A DNA stretch of 30,802 nucleotides from a virus. Taxonomy: Duplodnaviria > Caudoviricetes. Shown here piece by piece: positions 1,940 to 26,753 of this stretch (positions within the stretch are counted from its first letter, which is position 1; every line of letters starts with the position of its first letter). The notes below the pieces were generated by a model, which saw only the letters and a list, made by a program, of their open reading frames with translations, was not told the DNA's origin and searched no databases. The translations under genes and the position numbers were made by a program. Where the stretch lies: positions 1-30,802 of the IMG/VR virus record IMGVR_UViG_3300038336_000145; one strand, given 5' to 3'.

Positions 1940-2193
1940 CCTCGCGGCGTCTGGAGTGCGGTCTGGCGCGCAACCGCGTACGCCGCCGCATTCAGGAGCA
2001 TCTGGACCGCCTGGGCAAGAGCATGGCGGACGTGAGCCGGGAGATCGGCATCTCGCGCCAGCTGGTCGCGGCCACGGTCGCCGGGGAAAAGCACAACGGG
2101 CGCGTGCTGACCAAGCTCCGTGAGCTGGGCGTTCCCGAACGCTACCTGTTCGACCCGACCCTGTGCGAGCAGAAGCAGGAGGAGGCAGCATAA
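1936..2193 (+). CDS. Ner/Cro-like HTH DNA-binding protein, 85 aa
   Basis: HTH SMADVSREIGISRQLVAATVAG; directly upstream of the transposase, as Mu ner is. Confidence 0.75.
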   Translation: MTSRRLECGLARNRVRRRIQEHLDRLGKSMADVSREIGISRQLVAATVAGEKHNGRVLTKLRELGVPERYLFDPTLCEQKQEEAA

Positions 2194-4355
2194 TGAACGG
2201 CTGCACTGCTTCCCAGCTTGCGGACGCCCTTGGCTGCACCATCTCCACCCTGCACCGCAGGGCCAACGCGGAGAGCTGGCCCTTTGAGGCCAAGCCCGGA
2301 CGCGGCGGCGGCAAGCTCTTCCCCCTGACCACCTTGCCGGATGATATCCGCCTGGCCCTGGCCAGCACCGCCACCACCGCCACAAATCACGAGGCCGCCA
2401 CGCTGAAGCTGCGCCAGGAACTGGCCACGCGGGCCGCCGAGGGTTCGCGCCAAGGCGCGCTCTCCGCCTTCGCCGCCCTGCCCGAGCCGCGCAAGCGCCG
2501 GGCCGAGGCGCGGGCGCTCATCGCCAGGCTGTGCACAGATTTCCTGACCACTTCCGGCCTGCCGCGCCGCCGTGGCACAGAGCTGTTCGCCAGCGACTAC
2601 AACACCGGCCGCATCAGCACGCCGGACTGGACGCGCGAGCAGGTGCCCAGCCTCTGCGCGGGCAGCATCCACAACTGGCAGAAGGCCCTGGACCGCGAGG
2701 GTCTGGCCCGACTGGCCGGGAACCACGGCCTCCACCGCCTGGGCACCGGCAAGATCGACGGCAACCCGGAGCTGTCCGGGTTCTGCCTGGGCATGCTCAA
2801 GACCTACCCGCACAGCCACGCCACGCACCTGCTGGAGGCCATGCGCGCCCGCTTCGGCGAAGACAAGCTGCCCACCCTGCGCGCCGTGCAGCGCTGGCTG
2901 GCTGGATGGAAGTCCCGCAACGCCCAGCTGTTCACCGCCGTGAAGAACCCGGACGCCTGGCGCAGCAAGTACATGGCCGCCGGGGGCGACGCCCTGGGCG
3001 TCCTGCGCCTGAACCAGCGCTGGGAAATGGACTCCACCAAGGGGGACATGCTGCTTTCCGACGGCACGCGCCACGTCATCGTAGGCTGCATCGACGTGTA
3101 TTCCAGGCGGTTAACGCTGCATGTCTCGCGCTCCAGCTCGTCGGCCGCCGTGGCCGCCACCCTGCGCAAGTCGCTCCTGGCCTGGGGCGTGCCCGAGGAA
3201 GTGAAGACCGACAACGGCTCGGACTACGTGAGCCGCCATATGACCAGCCTGTTCCTGGGCCTGAACATCCGCCAAACCCTGTGCGCACCCTTCCAGCCGC
3301 AACAGAAACCCTACATCGAGCGCGTCTTCGGCACCTTCTGCCGCGACCTGGTGGAGCTGCTCGCGGGCTTTGTGGGCCACAGCGTGGCCGAGCGCAAGGA
3401 CATCGAGGCCCGCCGGAGCTTCTCCCAGCGGCTGATGAAGCAAGGCGAGGAAGCCCTGGAACTGCGCATGACGCCAGGCGAGCTGCAAGACTTCTGCGAC
3501 CGCTGGACCGAGGACGTGTATGCCCGCAAGCCTCATTCCAGCCTGTCCGGCAAGAGCCCCTGGCAGATGGCCGCCGAGTGGCCGCACCCGGTGCAGCGCA
3601 TTCAGGATGAACGCGCGCTCGACGTGCTGCTGTTGCCCGCTCCGGGTGAAGGCACCCGCCGCGTGACCAAGAAGGGCATCCGCCTGGACGGCGGCCTGTA
3701 TGACCACGCGGCCTTGGGCGGCATGGAAGGCCGCGACGTGCTGGTTCGGCTCGACGAGGGTGACGTGGGCGCCATCTACGTGTTCGACCTGGACGGCCCG
3801 TTCCTCTGCCGGGCGCTCTGCCCGGAGATCGCGGGCGTCTCCCGCCGCGACGTGGCCCTGGCCCGCAAGCGCAGGCAACAGGTCGTGATCAACGAGGGCA
3901 AGGCCATGCTGCGCCAGGCCGCACGCAAGGCCAACGTCAAGGACATCGCCCAGGAGATCCTGGCCGACGCGCGCGCCGAGGCCGCCAAGGTGCAGGCCCT
4001 GCCGCGCCAGGCCGAGGCCTGGGATACCCCGGCCCTGACCGAGGCTGGGATTGCCGCCCGCGTCACGGACGCCCCCGCCTCCCTGCCGCAGGAGCAGGAG
4101 GACCGCCTGAACGCGCAGACCGACGCCCTAGCGGCGGAAATGTCTGCCGTACGGCCCGTGCCGGAGACCATGGAGGTGCGCTACGCCCGCGCCCTGCGCC
4201 TGGAGAAGACCCTGGCCTGCGGGCTGGCCGTGGACCCCGACGCCCTGCGCTGGCTGCACGGCTACCAGAACACCCCGGAATACCTGGGCTGCCGCAATGT
4301 CTACGAGGAATTTGGCGACGAGTGGCTGCCGCAGGCGGCGGGCGCTGGTCTGTAA
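2193..4355 (+). CDS. MuA-type DDE transposase, 720 aa
   Basis: N-terminal Mu-type DNA-binding domain (TASQLADALG..LHRRANAESW..GRGGG); DDE triad in WEMDST, KTDNGSDY, KPYIERVF; GGAGG RBS and TAATG overlap at 2191-2195. Confidence 0.96.
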   Translation: MNGCTASQLADALGCTISTLHRRANAESWPFEAKPGRGGGKLFPLTTLPDDIRLALASTATTATNHEAATLKLRQELATRAAEGSRQGALSAFAALPEPRKRRAEARALIARLCTDFLTTSGLPRRRGTELFASDYNTGRISTPDWTREQVPSLCAGSIHNWQKALDREGLARLAGNHGLHRLGTGKIDGNPELSGFCLGMLKTYPHSHATHLLEAMRARFGEDKLPTLRAVQRWLAGWKSRNAQLFTAVKNPDAWRSKYMAAGGDALGVLRLNQRWEMDSTKGDMLLSDGTRHVIVGCIDVYSRRLTLHVSRSSSSAAVAATLRKSLLAWGVPEEVKTDNGSDYVSRHMTSLFLGLNIRQTLCAPFQPQQKPYIERVFGTFCRDLVELLAGFVGHSVAERKDIEARRSFSQRLMKQGEEALELRMTPGELQDFCDRWTEDVYARKPHSSLSGKSPWQMAAEWPHPVQRIQDERALDVLLLPAPGEGTRRVTKKGIRLDGGLYDHAALGGMEGRDVLVRLDEGDVGAIYVFDLDGPFLCRALCPEIAGVSRRDVALARKRRQQVVINEGKAMLRQAARKANVKDIAQEILADARAEAAKVQALPRQAEAWDTPALTEAGIAARVTDAPASLPQEQEDRLNAQTDALAAEMSAVRPVPETMEVRYARALRLEKTLACGLAVDPDALRWLHGYQNTPEYLGCRNVYEEFGDEWLPQAAGAGL

Positions 4356-8065: not shown

Positions 8066-9034
8066 ATGCAACAGATCAATAACTTTGACGAACTCGTTTC
8101 ATTCATGTGGAAAGTTTCAAATGGTGAAGCAAGCTTTGACGGGGTAGTATTTTCAGACAACTGCGCGAGTATACCAATACGCGTTGAAGGCGTAACTTGG
8201 GACAAGCGGATTGATGTGAGAGGGGCAAAGTATGTTCAGGCCCTCCAAGAAGAGCTTAATGCATTCTGTAAAAAATACAAAGATATTATTGGTGAAGACG
8301 CCCCACTCATCAAGGTTGCTGTCCGTAAGGGTAGCGGAATACTCGATCCAGACTTTCTTCCATTCCTGAAGGAGGCGATAAAGAAAATGCCCCCAAAGCT
8401 GACCTTTACGCTACTCATGACATTTATGGCATGCTCTACAGGATATTTAATATACTCTCGTTATGAGTCGGCACAAGAACAGTCTCGAGAAAACAAAGTC
8501 GCAATTGAAGCGATCCGATCAATGAAAGAAGTTGCGTTACAGAATGGATTTGACACCTCGAAAGCCACAAGGCCAATTCGGTCGTTTGTAAAAACTCTCG
8601 ATCCAGAGGATCAGATTTCTGTCGCGGGGTTGGAAGAAATTAGCGGTGACAAAGCAAAACAACTAGTCGAAACTAAAAGATCCCGTTCGCATGAGGTAAC
8701 GATTCCGTGTGACGGGAAATATATCCTCGACAAACTGGATGTGAAACGACCTATCCCTGTTCTTGAACTTTCCCAGGGGGGCGTCCCCCTGAATGGATAT
8801 CTTGAACACTTAGCTCCTGAGGCTAAGCAAACTCTCCTCAAAGCTTTAGAGGAACGCATTGGGAGCAGGAAGGGCGCGATTGTTCTTGAACTTCAGATCG
8901 ACGTTCATGCGACTGCAAAAAAAGTTAAATATGGCAGTATTGTTGGTATCGGTATACCTAGAGAGGGGATGCCACATCGCAGGCTCACCGACTTACCGCT
9001 TAAGCCTATCCCACAGGCCAAGCTTAATCCTTAA
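8066..9034 (+). CDS. Accessory hypothetical protein with one central TM segment, 322 aa
   Basis: Long ORF in AT-richer DNA; G-rich RBS; hydrophobic stretch LTFTLLMTFMACSTGYLIY. Confidence 0.8.
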   Translation: MQQINNFDELVSFMWKVSNGEASFDGVVFSDNCASIPIRVEGVTWDKRIDVRGAKYVQALQEELNAFCKKYKDIIGEDAPLIKVAVRKGSGILDPDFLPFLKEAIKKMPPKLTFTLLMTFMACSTGYLIYSRYESAQEQSRENKVAIEAIRSMKEVALQNGFDTSKATRPIRSFVKTLDPEDQISVAGLEEISGDKAKQLVETKRSRSHEVTIPCDGKYILDKLDVKRPIPVLELSQGGVPLNGYLEHLAPEAKQTLLKALEERIGSRKGAIVLELQIDVHATAKKVKYGSIVGIGIPREGMPHRRLTDLPLKPIPQAKLNP

Positions 9035-9073
9035 TCCTTCTCGTACTATCGAACTTTCATCAGGAATACCTCC

Positions 9074-10540
9074 ATGAGTGAAGGACAAGACGCCCCCCCT
9101 GCAAAGTCCATCGGGATCGACCTCGCCACTCTTTCCGCCAACGTGGATATTGAGACAGAAGATGCGGGCATACTCCGGATCGGTCCCTTGAATGCCGGTG
9201 TCCTCATCGACGTGGCCCCCTTGCTCGAATCTACCTCCAACATACCTGAAGCTTCTTTGGCAAAATCGATGATGCTGAAGATGGTGAAAAACAAACCGAC
9301 CGACGAGGGCGCGGAATGTTCACCGCTTACGAGTGAACAAAGGGAGCGAATCACCGAGGAGGACGTTCGCCGTTTTGCTGAGGCGGTGCTCAAACGCGAA
9401 CGGGTGAAGGAAATATTGACCGACTCGGGGGAGCCGCTTTCCCCTGAACTTGCACTTGTTCGGTACGTCCGCGAATGGAACGAGAAGATTACTGAACCCA
9501 TGAAGCGCTGGAATACTGCTCTTGGCTCCGGGTTTCTTACGGCTTCCACACGTAACGCTTTGGGAGACTTCAAACTCCATAGAGCAATCGCTGACTCAAT
9601 GCGCACGCCCGCTTGGCTTTCCGAGACTGCTGTGGCCAAGAGCCTGATGGCGGATGCCGAGCGAGTCGCAAGGGCAACCGCCTATCCCGGCGGTGCTATT
9701 GGCAAGAAGCTAATGGAGGATGCCGAGCGACTTACAAGGGCTACCAATGGTCTTGGTGCCTCCGCCGTTAAGGGCGCTATCGCTGATGTAGAGCGTCTTA
9801 CGAAGGCGGCCTATATTCCTGACCTTGGCATCGCGAAGGGCGTGATTGCGGATGTCGAGCGTGCAGCTAGGGCTGCCGCCTTTCCCGACGCTGCCGCGTT
9901 CAAGGTCCCATTAGCAGAGACGGCAACGGGAAGGCTGGCTGCCGAATGGGAAAAAATGACTGCCGCAATTAAAAACCCGCTAGCAGGGACGGCAACGGGT
10001 AGACTGGCAGCCGAACTCGAAAAGACGGCGGCCGCATGGCCAAGCCAAGAGGCCCGCCCTCTTCTCGGTGCAGCGCAGTTGCAGGAAGCGATCATCGGGC
10101 AGAGCCCTACCGCGAGACTAAGCGAAAAGCTGGACGAACTGAAAGACGCGATTGGCAACGGGACCGAACTGACGGAAAGGCTTCTGTCTGACTCCGTTGC
10201 TGCAACTCGAAAGCATATTGAACAAGCGGAAGAGCAAGGGAAAACGGATGCGCGCGCCCAACGAATAGCCGTATGGTGTGCGGTCGGAGGTATTGCTGTC
10301 ACGGTCGTCCTTGGGCTGGCTTCGTTGGTAGTGTCCTGCCAAAGCTACAGCCACGATCTCGCGGTAGAAGCAAACGCTGCAAAAGAGCGTACCACGTCTG
10401 CCTCTAAGGAAGAGGAGAGGCTACAGATCCTACGGGAGCAGATTGCTACCCAACAGGAGCAAAACAGGCTTTTGCGTGAGCTTCTGACCCAATCCGCTCA
10501 GAAGGGCAAAACCCCCAGCCCCAAAGTAGCCCCGCGGTAA
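9074..10540 (+). CDS. Accessory hypothetical protein with helical repeats, C-terminal TM and coiled coil, 488 aa
   Basis: Long ORF with AGGA RBS; 22/23-aa repeats; TM IAVWCAVGGIAVTVVLGLASLVVSC. Confidence 0.8.
   Translation: MSEGQDAPPAKSIGIDLATLSANVDIETEDAGILRIGPLNAGVLIDVAPLLESTSNIPEASLAKSMMLKMVKNKPTDEGAECSPLTSEQRERITEEDVRRFAEAVLKRERVKEILTDSGEPLSPELALVRYVREWNEKITEPMKRWNTALGSGFLTASTRNALGDFKLHRAIADSMRTPAWLSETAVAKSLMADAERVARATAYPGGAIGKKLMEDAERLTRATNGLGASAVKGAIADVERLTKAAYIPDLGIAKGVIADVERAARAAAFPDAAAFKVPLAETATGRLAAEWEKMTAAIKNPLAGTATGRLAAELEKTAAAWPSQEARPLLGAAQLQEAIIGQSPTARLSEKLDELKDAIGNGTELTERLLSDSVAATRKHIEQAEEQGKTDARAQRIAVWCAVGGIAVTVVLGLASLVVSCQSYSHDLAVEANAAKERTTSASKEEERLQILREQIATQQEQNRLLRELLTQSAQKGKTPSPKVAPR
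9638..10045 (+). repeat. Intragenic degenerate tandem repeats: 4 x 66 bp (22 aa), then 2 x 69 bp (23 aa)
   Basis: K-x2-[MI/L]-x-x-D-[AV]-E-R-type units start at 9638, 9704, 9770, 9836; PLA[EG]TATGRLAAE[WL]EK units start at 9908 and 9977. Confidence 0.85.
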
Positions 10541-10672
10541 AAATGAACGAGGATGAGGTGAAGGGTGGTGTCCGCTGCTTTCGTAGTATCATAGCCCATT
10601 TGCTGCGGAATAGCTCTGGATGATGTTTGGTGACGGCCATATAAGCGTCTACGCGCAAACTTAGGAGGACAC

Positions 10673-11077
10673 ATGAATTCAGAAAGATTTTATGCATCTA
10701 CACAGTATGGCGACATGAAAGGTACATCTTGTGCCGATAATCATGCCAGCAACTCAATGCGTGTGTATCTGGAAAAGAATGAACTGATCCACCCTGATGA
10801 ACTGCTTGTCGGTATTTCTATGTTCTCCGGGGAGGTGCACACGTCGACGCAGGACAACCCTGTCTATGTCCATGCATATGTCGTTAAGGCAACGGACTTT
10901 GAAGAGATGAAGAAACTTGTCGATTCAGAAATGCCGTTGCCGGTGCGCCGGATTTCCATTGAGATGCACCTTAACGAATTTTTCGGTCTGTTTAAAAGGT
11001 TTGAAATTTGTGTTTCTAATAACGGCTTGATCGATGGGAAAGAAATAGAGGTGTTAGAGTCCACGGACGTGGAGTAA
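10673..11077 (+). CDS. Accessory hypothetical protein, 134 aa, acidic
   Basis: Strong AGGAGG RBS; tandem TAA TAA stop; AT-richer codon usage. Confidence 0.82.
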   Translation: MNSERFYASTQYGDMKGTSCADNHASNSMRVYLEKNELIHPDELLVGISMFSGEVHTSTQDNPVYVHAYVVKATDFEEMKKLVDSEMPLPVRRISIEMHLNEFFGLFKRFEICVSNNGLIDGKEIEVLESTDVE

Positions 11078-17699: not shown

Positions 17700-18208
17700 T
17701 TGATCTGAAGATCGACGCCGAGCGCACCCTGCACGCAATGGAGATGCTGCGCGTGAGCTGCCTGGAGGCCTCCCCGGCCATGCGGGCCATAGCGGGAGAC
17801 ATGGAGCGTGCGGTGGAGCGGAACTTCCACAGCGAAGGCCGCCCGGCCTGGCTGGGGCTCGCTCCCGGCACCATTGCCTCGCGCATGCGCACCGGCACCT
17901 GGCCGGGCAAGATCCTTCAGCGCACCGGCCAGCTGGCGGCCAGCATCGAGAGCCGCGCGGACGCCACCAGCGCCACCGTGGGCACCAACCTGGTCTATGC
18001 CGCCATTCAGCAGCTGGGCGGCACCACCCGCGCGCACACCATCACCGCGCGCAAGGGCAAGGCCCTGGCCTTTGGTGGCATCTGCCGCCGCTCGGTCCAC
18101 CACCCTGGCTCCAAGATCCCGGCCCGGCCCTTCCTGGCCCTGGACGTGGACGACGAGCGGCAGATTATGGAGTCGGTGCTGCTATTCCTAACTGGCAGAC
18201 TGGGGTAA
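17696..18208 (+). CDS. Virion morphogenesis protein (Mu gpG / gp31 family)
   Basis: KILQRTGQLAASI, VGTNLVYAAIQQLGG, IPARPFL motifs. Confidence 0.92.
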   Translation: MIDLKIDAERTLHAMEMLRVSCLEASPAMRAIAGDMERAVERNFHSEGRPAWLGLAPGTIASRMRTGTWPGKILQRTGQLAASIESRADATSATVGTNLVYAAIQQLGGTTRAHTITARKGKALAFGGICRRSVHHPGSKIPARPFLALDVDDERQIMESVLLFLTGRLG

Positions 18209-18280
18209 GCGCAGCATTTCACGCTTCTTGCCTTCCCCTCGGATTTCCCGCAAAGATACCTATACTTGCGTGGCGGTATT
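18116..18280 (+). repeat. Copy 1 of a 165-bp diverged direct repeat (gpG 3' end plus promoter-like block)
   Basis: Aligns without gaps to 20530-20694 (offset 2414 bp). Confidence 0.92.
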
Positions 18281-18314
18281 CCTTGCCCAGCACGTTGATA
18301 CGAATGAGGGGAAC

Positions 18315-20528
18315 ATGACCTGCTGCAAATGTGAAGAGTACAAATGGGGCGATCCTCAACCTGTCGAGTATGTGGACGATGAGGGCAAGGGTTATTGCCT
18401 GTTCCACGCCCCGGCAAACTACAAGATGATCGACGGATGCCCGTATCTCTCAGTTGCCGCGTTCAACACCTTCGTCTTTCATCGCATTGATCAGGTTATT
18501 GCCAAGAACAAGGCGGCTGGCGAAAGCAACCGCTGCAATATGGCAGGCGTCGTGTTCTTGGGTGAAATTTCCTTCAGTGCGTACGATAGCGATAACCCTC
18601 TTCCGCCTATTTTGTTCAGCCACGCAAAGTTTCAGGGAGAGACAAATTTCGGCAACACCACCTTCGGCGAAGAGGTGACATTCGACAAGGTCAAATTCGG
18701 CGAAGAGTCGAATTTCGACAATGCCAAATTCTGCGCTTGGACGAAATTCACCAATGCCACCTTCGGCAAAATGGCGGATTTCACCAATGCCACCTTCGGC
18801 AAAGGGGCGGATTTCGAAAATGCCAAATTAGGCGACGGTGCGCACTTCGACACTGCCACCTTTGACGCATACGCGACCTTTAACAATGCCACCTTTGGCG
18901 AATGGACAACCTTCGACAATGCCACCTTTGGCGAATGGGCAACCTTCGACAATGCCACCTTTGGCGATTGGGCGTCCTTCGAGAAGGCCAAATTCGGCAG
19001 TATGGCGAGATTTGACAAGGCCACCTTTGTTGAAAAGGTGAGATTTTCCAAAACCACCTTTGGGAACCAGACGCTATTCAGTAATGTGGCATTTAAAGGC
19101 CTGGCGACATTTGGCGATGCCATCTTCGGCGATGAGGTGAGTTTTTGCAGAACGAACTTCAGCGAAAGGGCGATCTTCGACAATGCCACCTTCGGCGAAA
19201 AGGTGATATTCGAAAAGGCCAAATTCGGCGAAGAATCGAGTTTTGACGATGCCAAATTCGGCGCACGTGCGAGATTCACCAATACCACCTTCGGCAACAT
19301 GGTGACATTTAACAAAGCCACTTTCGGCAACAAGGCGACATTCAACAAGGCCAAATTCGGCGAATGGGCGAAATTCCAGAAGGCCTCCTTCGGCAAAGAG
19401 GTGAGATTCGAAAATGCCGAATTCAGCGTAATGGCGAACTTCTGCTATGCCATTTGGGGCGAAGGGGCGAAATTCGACAATGCCATCTTTGGCGAAGGGT
19501 CGGAATTTTGCAACGCCACCTTCGGCGAGCGGTCGGCATTCTATAAAACCACCTTCGGCAAATGGGCGACCTTCGCCAATGCCATCTTCGGCGAAGGGAC
19601 GACATTCGACAATGCCCTCGTTGGTGCCGAAACGGATTTCAAGGCAGCTGAATTCAAGGGCCGAACAACCTTTCAACAGACCACATTTGGGCACGGAGTA
19701 GACTTCGGAACGGCCATCTTCAAGGGCGTGCCGGACTTTGGAGCGGCCAACTTCACCGGCAGCTCCTCTTTTCGCGAGGCCAGATTCGTACGCAACGCCA
19801 AATTCACTCGGACCCTCTTCGCTGGGGAAGCGGATTTCCAAGAGGTCAAGACAAAGGAGAAGGCCCTTCGGCTGCATGCGCTTCAAGCCGCGTCCTTAGC
19901 CAACCTTTCGTTCACCAGTCTGGAAACGGACCTCTTTTCGTTCAAAGGCTGCGACTGGCCTGAAAAGCTTTTGCCGGAAGCGGATGGACTCCAAAGCGGC
20001 CAGGACTGCAAGGGGCTTTACCGCGATGACAAGGCCTGCGAGGAACTGTACCGAAGCCTGAAGCAAAAGGCCGCTGCCGAACACGATCAGCCAATGACCT
20101 CCTGGTGGCACTACCGGGAAAAGCTGATGAAGTTGGCAGGGGTAAAAAGCAGATACCCATATATCTGGCATCTCCATTGGCTAGGCTTGTACTGGCGGCT
20201 TTGCGGGTTTGGGGAGCGCTGGGTGCCGCCGCTGAAGGCGTTTGGAGGAATGCTTCTGTTCTGTCTGTTGCTACTAGGAATGGGGGGGGTCCAGAGCGAA
20301 ACATACGCCATTCACGGACCTGCCTGGCCAACCTGGGAGAACATCCAGAACTTTGGCTCCGTCTGCCTGTCCCTGCTCAAGTACCTCCTGCTCATCAAGG
20401 AGGAGGCCATCACATTCAAGCCGATCTACGGAGCAGCGGAATTCTTCATCCTCCTCTTCACCCGCCTAGTCATCCCCATTCAGGCCGCGTTTTTCGCCAT
20501 CGCGCTGAGGAATGCGTACCGGAGGTAG
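18315..20528 (+). CDS. Pentapeptide-repeat-type protein with N-terminal Cys/His motif and C-terminal membrane domain, 737 aa
   Basis: About 37 consecutive 11-aa repeats; CCKC..YCLFH; C-terminal GFGER, TM helices and ALRNAYRR end; GAGG RBS before ATG 18315. Confidence 0.88.
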   Translation: MTCCKCEEYKWGDPQPVEYVDDEGKGYCLFHAPANYKMIDGCPYLSVAAFNTFVFHRIDQVIAKNKAAGESNRCNMAGVVFLGEISFSAYDSDNPLPPILFSHAKFQGETNFGNTTFGEEVTFDKVKFGEESNFDNAKFCAWTKFTNATFGKMADFTNATFGKGADFENAKLGDGAHFDTATFDAYATFNNATFGEWTTFDNATFGEWATFDNATFGDWASFEKAKFGSMARFDKATFVEKVRFSKTTFGNQTLFSNVAFKGLATFGDAIFGDEVSFCRTNFSERAIFDNATFGEKVIFEKAKFGEESSFDDAKFGARARFTNTTFGNMVTFNKATFGNKATFNKAKFGEWAKFQKASFGKEVRFENAEFSVMANFCYAIWGEGAKFDNAIFGEGSEFCNATFGERSAFYKTTFGKWATFANAIFGEGTTFDNALVGAETDFKAAEFKGRTTFQQTTFGHGVDFGTAIFKGVPDFGAANFTGSSSFREARFVRNAKFTRTLFAGEADFQEVKTKEKALRLHALQAASLANLSFTSLETDLFSFKGCDWPEKLLPEADGLQSGQDCKGLYRDDKACEELYRSLKQKAAAEHDQPMTSWWHYREKLMKLAGVKSRYPYIWHLHWLGLYWRLCGFGERWVPPLKAFGGMLLFCLLLLGMGGVQSETYAIHGPAWPTWENIQNFGSVCLSLLKYLLLIKEEAITFKPIYGAAEFFILLFTRLVIPIQAAFFAIALRNAYRR
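18609..19829 (+). repeat. Intragenic 33-bp (11-aa) tandem repeat array, about 37 units
   Basis: Consensus A-x-F-D-N-A-T-F-G-E-x; near-identical adjacent DNA units around 18880-18970. Confidence 0.92.
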
Positions 20529-20529
20529 C

Positions 20530-20694
20530 ATTCCGGCCCGGCCGTACCTGGCCCTCGACGTGAGCGACGAGCGGCAGATCCAGGCTTCGGTGATTGCCTT
20601 CCTGACCGGGCGGATGGAGTAGACTCGGCCATTTTTGACTCTTGCCTTCCTCTCGAATTTACCGCAAGGATACGTATACTCACGTGGTGGTATT
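20530..20694 (+). pseudogene. Copy 2 of the 165-bp repeat: orphan 3' fragment of a second gpG allele plus promoter-like block
   Basis: Reads IPARPYLALDVSDERQIQASVIAFLTGRME* versus IPARPFLALDVDDERQIMESVLLFLTGRLG* (22/30 aa identical); downstream 54-nt block 46/54 identical. Confidence 0.92.
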
Positions 20695-20765
20695 GGCTAT
20701 GGACAGAACGCCGACGCTTTGAGATGAACACTAGCTCTGTACAATTTCCTGGTAGGCGTTTACAA

Positions 20766-20794
20766 TTGATTGCAAAAATATCAAGCAAGACAAT
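20766..20794 (+). promoter_or_regulatory. Candidate sigma70 promoter of the lipoprotein gene
   Basis: TTGATT-N17-GACAAT, 23 nt upstream of ATG 20818. Confidence 0.5.
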
Positions 20795-20817
20795 AAAGAG
20801 CTGGCGGAGGAAACGTC

Positions 20818-21624
20818 ATGAAAAAGGTTGCTGCTATTATCGCGATGTTGACCATTGCAGTGTTGGTCAGCGGATGTGCCTCAACATACAATGAAGCAGG
20901 CAAAAAGATTGCCTATCTGCCAGGTAAAGTTGGCTTGGGAAGTACCAAGCTTGAGGTCTTCAATACTTACGGTCATCCTTCCGCTCAAAGGCAACTCGGC
21001 GAACTATATATTTATGACTACAATTACACAATTGGTCAGGCGAAGCATGATAGGCTAATCGCACAGGGGACCGCAGCATTATTTACCATGGGCATTTCAA
21101 ATCTTTTTGTTGACCATGGTGTTAATCAGAGTGATTTCAAGGAAGACTATCAGGAGCTTCAATTTATTTTTGACAACAACAGTAAAGTTGTAGATTTTCA
21201 CTATCACGATAGCCAGGGAAACGGCAATGATGAAAGCGAGACCATTTACCTAAAAGCAGTAGCCGCTGTAATAAGCGGCAACATGCAGGAAGGCATTATT
21301 CTTGCGAGACGTTCTGTTGAATCCAACCAGAACAATCATCGTTCTCTCAACTTTTTGGCCTGGTATCTGGTTGACATGGGAATTAATCCCAAGGAAGGTG
21401 TTAGCCTGGCTGAACGAGCAGTAAAACTTTGGTCTTATGAACCAAATTATTGGGACACTCTTGGTACTGCTCAAGCCAAAGTTGGTGATTTCGTCGGGGC
21501 TAAGGAAAGCCTGGAGCAAGCCATGAAACTTTATCCAGTTTACATGCCAGGCTACAACTATGCTCACACTAAAACTATATACGAGCAAGTGAGTCAGCAG
21601 TTGACTGCCAAGAAGAAAATGTAG
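20818..21624 (+). CDS. Accessory lipoprotein with SmpA/BamE-like N-terminal region and C-terminal TPR repeats, 268 aa
   Basis: MKK signal plus lipobox LVSG-C; GSTKLEVFNTYGHP..YDY and LQFIFDNNSKVVD; TPR-like LNFLAWYL..AERAVKL..YWDTLG..A..SLEQAMKLYP; AT-rich; GGAGG RBS. Confidence 0.85.
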   Translation: MKKVAAIIAMLTIAVLVSGCASTYNEAGKKIAYLPGKVGLGSTKLEVFNTYGHPSAQRQLGELYIYDYNYTIGQAKHDRLIAQGTAALFTMGISNLFVDHGVNQSDFKEDYQELQFIFDNNSKVVDFHYHDSQGNGNDESETIYLKAVAAVISGNMQEGIILARRSVESNQNNHRSLNFLAWYLVDMGINPKEGVSLAERAVKLWSYEPNYWDTLGTAQAKVGDFVGAKESLEQAMKLYPVYMPGYNYAHTKTIYEQVSQQLTAKKKM

Positions 21625-21648
21625 TCCTCAAGACAAAAAAGTCCGGAT

Positions 21649-21920
21649 TATCCAATGACCAGTGGTTTCGGCGAAATGGAAAAGCGAAGAAGCTTGCCTT
21701 TTTGGTAATCTTGCCGCTGGGGCACAATATGATTCCCTCGCCTTTCGATGCCATTTCGCATAGCGAAGAGTTAATCAAGACGCTTGATTACATTCCGTTC
21801 ACAAATATTTTATCCAGCGGCACTGGCTGGCAGCGCCTTGGTCAAGGCGTGAGTCAGCTTTTGATTGCTCTTCAGGCAACCATCTTCGCCTTCGCCCTTC
21901 GCAACCGCTTCAGGCGCTAA
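21649..21920 (+). pseudogene. Frameshifted 3' remnant of a second pentapeptide/membrane-domain gene
   Basis: SGFGE at 21661-21675 (cf. CGFGER), then in another frame ..LLIALQATIFAFALRNRFRR* (cf. LVIPIQAAFFAIALRNAYRR*). Confidence 0.8.
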
Positions 21921-22106
21921 CGGAAGGCTTCCGGGCATGAGGGCTAGCGAAATCCATTAAACACTAGATTAAACGCATCCTGGCGCGCGTGGGGGGCAAG
22001 TCTACCGCGCGACACCACCCCGCCGGGAGGGGGATTGCCAACGCCGCCGGTTTCGGCATACCCTCGATGCACCACCTAACCACCACCTCCCCCCGCAGAA
22101 CCTAGC

Positions 22107-22154
22107 CCCCGGACACCTGTCCGCGTTATGTCTCGCCCTCGCTTCGGCGAGGAT
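22107..22154 (+). promoter_or_regulatory. Late promoter of the head operon (same motif as 11171-11192)
   Basis: CCCCGGACACCTGTCCGCGTTA with palindrome GGACA-N2-TGTCC; GAGGAT 20 nt downstream. Confidence 0.75.
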
Positions 22155-22160
22155 GCGGGC

Positions 22161-23306
22161 ATGAAGACACCCGCCCCCATCCACATCTTCCGGCCCGGCA
22201 CGCAGACGGACGTGAGCGGCACCACGCTGGCGTTCACCGAGGCCATGCTGGAAGCATCGGCAAAGGCCTACGACCCGGCCCTGCACGAAGCGCCCCTCGT
22301 GGTGGGCCACCCCCAAACCGACGCCCCGGCCTATGGCTGGGTGCAAGCCCTCGCCTTTTCCCAATCCGGCCTGGCCGCCAGCCCCCACCAGGTGGACCCC
22401 GAGTTCGCCGAGCTGGTGCGCGCGGGCCGCTTCAAGAAGATCTCCGCCTCGTTCTACACCCCCGACTCCCCGCAGAACCCCGTTCCCGGCGTGTTCTACC
22501 TGCGCCATGTGGGCTTTCTCGGCGCGGCCGCCCCGGCAGTGAAGGGTCTCAAGCCCGTGGCCTTCGCCGCTGGCGAGGAGGGCGTGGTGGAGTTCGCCAC
22601 CTTTGGCGAGGGCGACGCCTGGGCCGAACGGCAGAACGCCAATCTGTGGCGCAGTTTCCGCGAGTGGCTCGCCAGCCAGTTCGGCCAGGACGCAGCCGAC
22701 CAGGCGTTGCCCCAGAACCATCTTGCACAACCCGCGTTCGCCGAGGGCGCGGCCAAACCAAAGTCCAAGGAGGACGACGTGGATCAGAAGGAACTTGATG
22801 CCGCGAGGGCCAAGCTCGTGGAAGAGCGGGCCGCACTGGACAAGGACAAGGCGGACTTCGCCGAAACCAAGGCCAAGGCCGACCAGGCTGTTCTGCTCGT
22901 GACCCACGAGCAGCACCTGGCCTTTGCCGAGGGTCTGGTCAAGGAGGGCAAGCTGCTGCCCGCCAACAAGCTGGCCACCGTGGCCCTGCTGGACAACCTG
23001 GCCGCCACCGGCGCGAGCCTGGAGTTTGCCGAGGAAGGCGGCACCAAGACCAGCAAGCCCGCGCTCCAGAGCATGAAGGACATGCTGCAAAGCGCGCCCA
23101 AGCTGGTGGACTTCACCGAGCGCGCCACCGGCGACCCGAACGCTCTTGCGTCCGGTGGGGGCAGCGTCAGCTTCGCCGCGCCCCAGGGCTTCACCGTGGA
23201 CGCGACCGGGCTGGAGCTGCACACCAAGGCCCTGGCCTACCAGGCCGCGCACCAGGGCGTGGACTACATCACGGCTGTGACGGCCGTCAGCGCAGGAGGC
23301 AAGTAA
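22161..23306 (+). CDS. Prohead protease/scaffold (Mu gpI-like)
   Basis: IHIFRPG, EAPLVVGHP, APAYGWV, FKKISASFY, YLRHVGFLGA..PAVKGL; start trimmed to 22161. Confidence 0.9.
   Translation: MKTPAPIHIFRPGTQTDVSGTTLAFTEAMLEASAKAYDPALHEAPLVVGHPQTDAPAYGWVQALAFSQSGLAASPHQVDPEFAELVRAGRFKKISASFYTPDSPQNPVPGVFYLRHVGFLGAAAPAVKGLKPVAFAAGEEGVVEFATFGEGDAWAERQNANLWRSFREWLASQFGQDAADQALPQNHLAQPAFAEGAAKPKSKEDDVDQKELDAARAKLVEERAALDKDKADFAETKAKADQAVLLVTHEQHLAFAEGLVKEGKLLPANKLATVALLDNLAATGASLEFAEEGGTKTSKPALQSMKDMLQSAPKLVDFTERATGDPNALASGGGSVSFAAPQGFTVDATGLELHTKALAYQAAHQGVDYITAVTAVSAGGK
22779..23306 (+). CDS. Scaffold protein (gpZ-like) from an in-frame internal start, 175 aa
   Basis: AAGGAGG SD followed 5 nt later by an in-frame GTG; coiled-coil sequence follows; parallels Mu I/Z. 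Confidence 0.65.
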   Translation: MDQKELDAARAKLVEERAALDKDKADFAETKAKADQAVLLVTHEQHLAFAEGLVKEGKLLPANKLATVALLDNLAATGASLEFAEEGGTKTSKPALQSMKDMLQSAPKLVDFTERATGDPNALASGGGSVSFAAPQGFTVDATGLELHTKALAYQAAHQGVDYITAVTAVSAGGK

Positions 23307-26007: not shown

Positions 26008-26670
26008 TTAGCTGGATTTCTTGGCGCGACGCTCTGCCAACAGGCCGGGGAGAGTGAAGGCGTAAAGCAAGAACAACTCGGTGAACGACTTAAGCGCCTC
26101 GCAAGTTACCTTATCAAAGGCATCTTCTTCATGTGTGGCATCGTTACCGTCAAGTCGAATAGCATGAGCCCATTCTTTCATTGCTGGAGTAATCTCATGC
26201 TTCTCTGCGAGTTCGTTAATTCTAGCGTGAAGTTTCCCACTCGTCGAGCCAAGCTCCTTTGTCGCAATATCAAGTGTCTTGCGAAACATTGCACCAGATG
26301 CATCAAAGTTGCTTCGCTGAAAGCTGTCAACAGCCTGCATGTATATTCTAGAAATATTATTCGAAACATGATCTGGAGGCTCATTAACATGGCACTTTGG
26401 GTAGCACGCATAAACCTCATAGTATTTTTCAAATTCAGTCCCATTAGGTATGTTGTGAGGTGAAGATGGACATTGCTTCTTCATTTTAACAAGAAGAACA
26501 CAACCTCCAAGACAATTGTTACAATGTATAAATAGGTTATAAGTCGAAGATGCGATTGACCCATCAAAATTTTTATAAAAATCAAATTGCTGAATCACTG
26601 AGTCAGCAACAGATGTAAACAAAACTTTATCAGTATTGCAGTGTGGGCATCTCATTGAATAGACAGCCAT
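26008..26670 (-). CDS. DUF4145-like (HEPN-related) protein with N-terminal Zn-ribbon-like Cys pairs; accessory, antisense to the tail operon
   Basis: CPHC..CNNC; ASGAMFRKTLD, LHARINEL, WAHAIRLDGNDATH, LFLLYAFTLP; AT-rich; GAGG RBS before ATG 26670. Confidence 0.88.
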   Translation of the reverse strand: MAVYSMRCPHCNTDKVLFTSVADSVIQQFDFYKNFDGSIASSTYNLFIHCNNCLGGCVLLVKMKKQCPSSPHNIPNGTEFEKYYEVYACYPKCHVNEPPDHVSNNISRIYMQAVDSFQRSNFDASGAMFRKTLDIATKELGSTSGKLHARINELAEKHEITPAMKEWAHAIRLDGNDATHEEDAFDKVTCEALKSFTELFLLYAFTLPGLLAERRAKKSS

Positions 26671-26753
26671 GGCGCACCTCTTGGTCAACGATTCAACACG
26701 TAATCAACGAATATTCGACATACCCAATACCGTCAACAGCATAAGGAGTCCCC

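Follow-up and report, generated by a model that had tools for sequence, protein, structure and literature searches.

A start-less second gpG end in a Mu-like prophage, likely a recombination scar stacking two alleles of one moron

How does a phage come to carry the end of one of its own genes twice, with accessory cargo behind each copy? The question is raised by a viral DNA of 30,802 nucleotides (Caudoviricetes; IMG/VR record IMGVR_UViG_3300038336_000145), the whole of which is called the window here. That it is a Mu-like prophage is confirmed by profile searches, which find gpF, gpG, a pentapeptide-repeat gene and gpI. Behind the intact gpG come a leader and the pentapeptide gene, then a second gpG end of 30 codons lacking a start codon, then a second leader, a predicted lipoprotein gene, a pentapeptide remnant and gpI. 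A first-pass annotation gave this layout and proposed that a 2414-bp unit had entered at the IPARP codons of gpG, supplied a replacement gpG end and pushed the older cassette downstream, as integrative elements do with target genes, at what might be an undescribed cargo-accretion hotspot of Mu-like phages. The comparisons reported here point to a well-preserved recombination scar, likely one that stacks two alleles of a single moron at a hotspot already known. As to the event, we give about an even chance to one recombination, probably a single homologous crossover of the resident gpG with a small circle from a related phage.

The repeat was described correctly at first pass, and its figures were reproduced. 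Positions 18116-18280 and 20530-20694 align without a gap over 165 bp (123/165 identical). The coding part comprises the last 30 codons of gpG and differs at 24 of 93 nt, leaving 22 of 30 amino acids the same; the differences fall into eight synonymous and eight non-synonymous codons and a TAA/TAG swap. A poorly conserved 18-nt piece (8/18) follows the gpG stop, and then a block of 54 nt identical at 46 positions; the early description had the block without the variable piece before it. Identity at a lag of 2414 is 11-18 of 20 in 20-nt windows within the repeat and 2-8 of 20 beyond it. Patches identical in both copies lie, in copy 1 coordinates, at 18119-18129, 18133-18141, 18151-18165 and 18226-18236. 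BLASTN finds the repeat in its own 3.5-Mb genome with an E value of 5.5e-25, and finds no third copy there. Contigs from two possible source runs (X1 and X2) cross the stretch with zero letter differences; the repeat is therefore not a mis-assembly. As also noted earlier, the stop codon of the pentapeptide gene (allele A, 20526-20528) is followed by one base, 20529, and then by copy 2. Beyond the position equivalent to 20529, the sequences of the relative G213 and of the X5 contig, from another study, continue differently from the window.

A direct repeat within one genome might be taken for a local tandem duplication that has since decayed. Such an origin is hardly tenable here: the ratio of nonsynonymous to synonymous substitution rates (dN/dS), which had been proposed as a check, is 0.32 between the copies and 0.13 between copy 2 and the full-length gpG of the relative G306, and copy 2 is closer to that gpG of another phage (80/87 nt) than to copy 1 (65/87). 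These same values indicate that copy 2 comes from a functional allele; both copies look like the ends of natural, functional-type gpG alleles, as the first-pass annotation had held.

Which of the two ends is the newcomer? Over 87 nt the copies differ at 22 sites; the G306 gene agrees with copy 1 at all of the first four and, of the 17 informative ones that come next, with copy 2 at 16 (permutation p 0.002; with 16 tests allowed for, about 0.03). Overall the G306 end matches copy 1 at 69 of 87 positions and copy 2 at 80, and the match is divided: copy 1 agrees at 32/33 and then 37/54, copy 2 at 28/33 and then 52/54. A composite of copy 1 nt 1-33 and copy 2 nt 34-87 matches G306 at 84/87, much as the DNA just upstream does (86/90). 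Trees tell a similar story: for the 250 nt before IPARP the window groups with G213 (100/98), near G306, and for the 87-nt ends G213 and G306 group with copy 2 (89/90), apart from copy 1. The switch in G306 and the tree grouping favour unit 1 as the newcomer and copy 2 as the displaced end, a polarity to which they lend moderate support, and place the crossover about ten codons inside the repeat. Of the original proposal, then, the polarity is favoured, and entry at the IPARP codons would give way to a crossover near nt 28-33. Of the four differences that fall in nt 1-27 of copy 2, three are synonymous, and each of the four states is found in relatives, as expected of donor DNA.

The event that we favour would run as follows. 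A circle would have formed by non-homologous joining of the allele A stop to the IPARP codons, at what is now 20528/20530, and would have contained the gpG end, the leader and allele A. Roughly ten codons into the shared 165 bp it would have crossed over with the resident gpG, by way of host or phage homologous-recombination proteins and with no integrase. gpG would have exchanged its end without being broken, and its former end would have been carried 2414 bp downstream together with the leader and cargo behind it. In a separate event, which could have preceded or followed the stacking, the low-G+C lipoprotein gene would have replaced most of a second pentapeptide gene (allele B), sparing the first codons and the C-terminus. 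Recombination between the copies could remove the unit again, in frame, to give a one-cassette allele. Recombination between moderately diverged phage sequences is established for phage recombinases (PMC3945230).

The IPARP codons themselves invite another explanation, site-specific integration at an IPARP core with the recombinase acting in trans. Direct repeats do flank the 2414-bp unit, gpG is kept in frame, and 11 nt at 18119-18129 are identical in the two copies; the host genome outside the prophage part has 13 tyrosine- and six serine-recombinase matches, and the right end of the prophage is unassembled, the contig stopping inside a tail-fibre-like gene. The identical 11-mer, however, is ordinary coding conservation, and the crossover would lie downstream of it, which suggests that IPARP marks the edge of the circle, that is, its non-homologous joint, and no att site. 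The unit holds no recombinase, and the early remark that no integrase is present holds for the prophage part seen (C6:304966-341584): neither PF00589 nor PF00239 matches there, and of recombination enzymes the MuA-type transposase alone was found. A further locus with this breakpoint did not turn up (none of 80 gpG loci, of which six are known cargo carriers, and none of six phage records, described below), the 22 genomes searched within the genus have the leader pattern at no other site, and Cazares et al. (PMC4378225) found no recombinase target common to the variable regions in Pseudomonas Mu-like phages. The locus thus resembles integrative elements in that duplication of the 3' end leaves the target gene whole; a linked recombinase and a reused breakpoint were not found. 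We regard this explanation as very improbable.

Several points weigh against the circle and its polarity. The breakpoint rests on four sites and mainly on one relative, G306; at those four sites copy 1 has the majority state, so the agreement with G306 is weak, and the excess of differences of copy 2 from G306 before the breakpoint falls short of significance by itself (Fisher p 0.10). Three other relatives yield an equally small p for another breakpoint, due to private changes at the end of copy 1. G213 itself mixes the two copies at its gpG end (73 and 75 of 87) and is nearer in the leader core to copy 1 (49/54) than to copy 2 (45/54); allele exchange is thus frequent, which blurs polarity. 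A further contig, X6, runs from gpG through the leader into the start of the gene at about 85% identity, so that the left arm of the window can be read as one natural allele. The node of the 87-nt (3') tree lies below the starred threshold. Neither a circle nor a deletion joint appeared among the joints listed (15 of 17) in contigs, which drop rare forms and would hardly reveal either, and no donor was found with the repeat behind allele A.

The chief rival is one illegitimate crossover out of register. In this account the left arm (gpG, leader, allele A) of one phage was joined to the right arm of a relative, beginning at the IPARP codons of the latter (gpG end, leader, lipoprotein gene, remnant, gpI); there was no circle, and no gpG end was replaced. 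A single event is enough. The order gpG, leader, allele A is natural, as it occurs in G213 (one BLASTN block, 17866-18412, 84%) and in the X6 contig; the two sides of the joint share no homology; relatives often have mosaic gpG ends; and the orphan is unique among the loci examined. The price is coincidence: the reciprocal pattern toward G306 would be accidental, and so would the grouping with copy 2 of the window's nearest relatives in the 5' tree. A single out-of-register joint between two related phages is a serious rival, with roughly a one-in-three claim on the data where the circle has about one in two.

Searches with gpG gave 16 distinct close alleles (G302, L149, L151 and repeats of the same contigs were dropped as duplicates). 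Eleven are empty, with 194-247 nt from gpG to gpI; two, L041 and G046, have the leader block and one pentapeptide-membrane gene each; one, G213, is a tandem of leader block, gene A, an 84-nt spacer and gene B; and two, G198 and L152, are cut off, the former with unrelated cargo on the opposite strand. The X5 contig holds a second tandem of the G213 type. No related phage among the 16 carries a clear copy of the orphan gpG end. A site empty in 11 of 16 close alleles, and cargo with a G+C content below that of its flanks (0.43-0.53 against 0.68-0.69 in the flanking core genes), are features by which the gpG-gpI cargo is classed as a moron. The C-terminus of allele A is 86% identical in amino acids to that of G213 gene A. 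The remnant of allele B begins near 21660, changes frame near 21690 and ends like G213 gene B; beyond the stack, on its right side, 810 nt match G213 at 92% identity. A 13-amino-acid match to the start of allele B in viral contigs was disregarded.

The leaders bind the two units together. Homology of copy 2 to the G213 leader (20530-20727 against L103; BLASTN, 80%) goes further than the early layout allowed, to about 20727-20745, taking in a ribosome-binding site and the decayed remains of the first few pentapeptide codons. Among 22 genomes of the genus the leader pattern matches four places in three, with zero control matches, and it also occurs in one viral contig; the window's genome has two copies and the two other genomes one each, all at gpG. 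In all five copies the core stands behind a gpG end and before a gene of the pentapeptide-membrane family or a decayed stub of one; different cargo behind each copy, a test set at first pass, is thus not what was found. Since the relatives' leader precedes the pentapeptide family, and the copy 2 leader runs into a decayed pentapeptide start, both units are alleles of one moron, the second of which was later overwritten for the most part by the lipoprotein gene.

Whether the 54-nt block is a promoter, as first annotated, is another matter; the position of the block is what suggests such a role. Its TTGCCT and TATACT lie 27 nt apart, a spacing at which they were rejected as a sigma-70 pair, and a sigma-70 scan finds zero sites in either block. 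Genome-wide counts of an alternative TTGCYT-18-AANNAT geometry were uninformative. A sigma-54-like GG-N10-GC is visible by eye only in L041 and G046. No terminator-like site was found after the cargo genes.

The tandem alleles raise a bolder possibility, that stacking without an integrase recurs. The gpG end and leader would be a reusable landing pad: circles with diverging pentapeptide-membrane genes would recombine into gpG, an essential gene, giving it a fresh end and displacing older alleles downstream, so that a defence or counter-defence family would pile up in rhs-like stacks. The 84-nt spacer of G213 and X5 (L103:8323-8406 in G213; it has an open frame of 25 codons and, though lacking the core, a leader tail) would be a worn-down older orphan unit, and the G046 stub a further scar, with the window as the fresh case. 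In the G213 spacer, the second half does match the leader tail (p 0.001-0.004) and the first 41 nt the coding start of copy 1 (p 0.002); the A-spacer-B tandem is known from two sources. In G046 (L104:5420-6620) a pentapeptide start stub of 24 codons, 79% identical to the start in the window, is fused before a second, whole gene; it looks like another allele-swap scar. Among 20 comparisons, however, those 41 nt also gave matches to a leader tail (p 0.001) and to the post-stop piece (p 0.046); between G213 and X5 the spacer is gap-free and about 90% conserved (eight changes), which is not how decaying DNA looks; the joint that this reading requires would lie about 11 nt away from the window's; and none of 80 loci has a clear orphan. 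A worn-down orphan in the spacer is an unlikely reading, and the general landing pad hardly less so.

Recurrence of the IPARP breakpoint, or of orphan ends with it, had been set as the test of the original proposal, and neither recurred in the loci surveyed, few of which carry cargo. Scans with a pattern of the gpG end gave one match per locus in ten viral, four metagenome and five genome loci, and a second match in none. In 80 gpG loci (70 viral and ten others, partly redundant) each locus's own gpG end was sought downstream; 68 have at least 2.5 kb downstream, and gpI was found in 44, of which four have gaps over 600 nt. There were no protein matches to an orphan end, in a set with only six known cargo carriers (L041, L048, L071 and L103 by gap size, L104 and L156 by inspection). 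DNA matches of 20-22 nt in three loci were dismissed, as they lie inside gpI and derive from upstream of the gene end; short resemblances of post-stop sequences to the IPARP region, and a shared 12-mer in the gpI start, were treated as chance. Six Pseudomonas phage records (five Pseudomonas aeruginosa phage loci and VW-6B) have no orphan end, nor does a second Mu-like prophage (L001) of the window's own genome, which has unrelated cargo behind its gpG. A family search of 301 genomes, with one query and low sensitivity for distant gpG, found a C-terminal gpG fragment only in the window's own genome. Literature searches, covering main texts and few subscription papers, turned up no description of orphan gpG ends.

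Table 1. Features of the window, in order of position; rows worded as putative or candidate are predictions.
Position	Strand	Feature	Basis or remark
2163..4355	+	MuA-type DDE transposase	PF09299, PF00665
16824..17699	+	gpF head morphogenesis gene	PF04233
17696..18208	+	Intact gpG (tail completion/neck), 170 aa	PF05069, phrog_26, TIGR01635
18116..18208	+	Copy 1 coding part, the last 30 codons of live gpG	Alignment
18143..18148	+	Putative crossover zone in copy 1 (partner 20557-20562; nt 28-33 of repeat)	Site pattern against G306
18209..18314	+	Leader 1: 18-nt variable piece, 54-nt conserved core (18227-18280), tail with ribosome-binding site	Promoter role putative
18315..20528	+	Pentapeptide-repeat gene, allele A, 737 aa from ATG	PF13576; Cys/His-rich start, 33-nt repeats, hydrophobic C-terminus
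20529	.	Single base between allele A stop and copy 2, a non-homologous joint	Alignment
20530..20622	+	Copy 2, orphan gpG end, 30 codons, without start codon	phrog_26 positions 202-230; 80/87 nt to full-length gpG of G306
20623..20745	+	Leader 2: core 20641-20694, tail, decayed first codons of pentapeptide gene	
20738..20766	+	Candidate sigma-70-like site TGTACA-17-TACAAT just before lipoprotein gene	Consensus match only; 3 sites found, 2.3 expected
20818..21624	+	Predicted lipoprotein with C-terminal TPR-like repeat, in place of most of allele B	43% G+C with flanks
21660..21920	+	Frame-shifted C-terminal remnant of pentapeptide allele B	Aligns to second gene of G213 and to gene of L041
21921..22160	+	Conserved pre-gpI region, present in empty alleles too	TTAAAC repeat 21957-21974; TTGCCA-18-TACCCT 22035-22064
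22161..23306	+	gpI protease/scaffold	phrog_976; start as in relatives, open reading frame opens at 22128

The cargo proteins themselves offer few leads. For allele A a resemblance to Ion_trans_2 is weak (25% of one cluster). The lipoprotein, with a putative lipobox read from the sequence by its consensus, has a single homologue (P0002, 58%, on a 1.5-kb contig) and none in viral contigs. PADLOC has no match for either protein, and no helix-turn-helix or acr family match was found among the proteins of the interval. The pentapeptide-membrane family occurs in 16 of 22 genomes of the genus; on contig C7 of the window's own genome, a chromosomal homologue (L002:6460-7480) has no leader block. Position and turnover allow a guess at a defence-related role, and the variable family at gpG-gpI is a candidate for defence or counter-defence. 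A phage pentapeptide protein has been reported, in a preprint, as a counter-defence factor (10.1101/2024.07.02.601686).

Other observations concern the site in relatives and the rest of the prophage. In G213 (L103:6435-10445) a 4-kb prophage remnant has both gpG and gpI truncated and both pentapeptide genes intact, next to a helicase-like gene and a tRNA-like stretch; retention of the pentapeptide genes may hint at a benefit to the host. Behind gpG of G198 (L105:1-857) lies a reverse-strand gene for a repeat protein, TPR-like by eye and with a hydrophobic C-terminus, inside which the contig ends. More distant Mu-like phages have at the gpG-gpI site a gene that by eye is DNA methylase-like (L048:8600-9388) or a reverse-strand membrane protein gene (L071:8438-9178). 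All close alleles share, at window positions 21957-22123, a TTAAAC direct repeat, TTGCMA-18-TANNNT and a short hairpin, a candidate late promoter with an activator site. The identity of the prophage as a Mu-like transposable one is given by its MuA DDE transposase, GemA, a Mor-like gene, a Mu portal and the order gpF-gpG-gpI. Between the Mor-like gene and the lysis genes (8066-11077) are three low-G+C accessory genes with weak PHROG matches only and no Pfam or PADLOC match; a low-G+C DUF4145 gene (26008-26688, minus strand) opposes the direction of the tail operon and has a weak PADLOC match to PD-T7-4 (E 6e-07).

As a variable cargo site, the gpG-gpI interval was rightly recognized at first pass; it is not an undescribed one. 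It is the published anti-CRISPR position of Pseudomonas Mu-like phages (PMC4704812), and acrF2 is annotated there in L198. The anti-CRISPR locus, or RGP G, of D3112-type phages (PMC4704812, PMC4378225; L194-L198) lies between a gpG homologue and the protease/scaffold gene, and has variable low-G+C cargo with a conserved leader upstream, as in the window. It differs in having small acr genes and a helix-turn-helix regulator, where the window has a large pentapeptide-membrane family gene and a lipoprotein gene; the loci of the five P. aeruginosa phages and VW-6B also lack the orphan gpG end.

More generally, morons and mosaic junctions of temperate phages resemble the window in placing an accessory gene with its own leader between virion genes, by homologous and illegitimate exchange (PMC4378225; De Paepe et al. 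2014, PMC3945230; P2/P4 hotspots, PMC13586616). Such exchange usually swaps one allele for another, whereas the window has two alleles added together, one of them now a pseudogene. The entry of morons into phage genomes is still called mysterious (PMC4378225). At this locus the scar can still be read, relatives supply empty, single and tandem alleles for comparison, and the whole fits additive gain by a single crossover in an essential gene; being a single case, at a hotspot already known, it exemplifies a mechanism and reveals no new integrative system.

Two systems come close in mechanism. Promoter cassettes of T4-type phages, the PeSLs, have been detected as circles (Arbiol et al. 2010, PMC2839356); there too accessory genes are preceded by a conserved, regulatory-like stretch, about 100-165 bp long, whose homology can be used for excision and insertion. 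PeSLs as there described are intergenic and numerous, are shown promoters and head unrelated genes; the window has two copies that include coding DNA, a putative promoter, a predicted circle and one gene family. Many copies heading unrelated genes, as with PeSLs, were not found: the window's genome has two, both at gpG.

The other likeness is to displacement of the rhs C-terminal tips, for which a two-step circle model has been proposed (Jackson et al. 2009, PMC2935791). In rhs as in the window, an intact gene is followed by a conserved 3' piece without a start, a single crossover with a circle is proposed to shunt the old end downstream, and no integrase is involved; the start-less fragment behind intact gpG, coming from a natural allele, is a feature of this type. 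An array of displaced ends was not found among the loci surveyed, where there is one clear orphan and the G213/X5 spacer is ambiguous. The window differs from rhs as described in that report in having one displaced end and no array, in a gene end that is conserved, the variable part being a separate gene downstream, and in copies 75% alike where those of rhs are near-identical. By analogy with rhs displacement, the pattern suggests homologous recombination with a circle.

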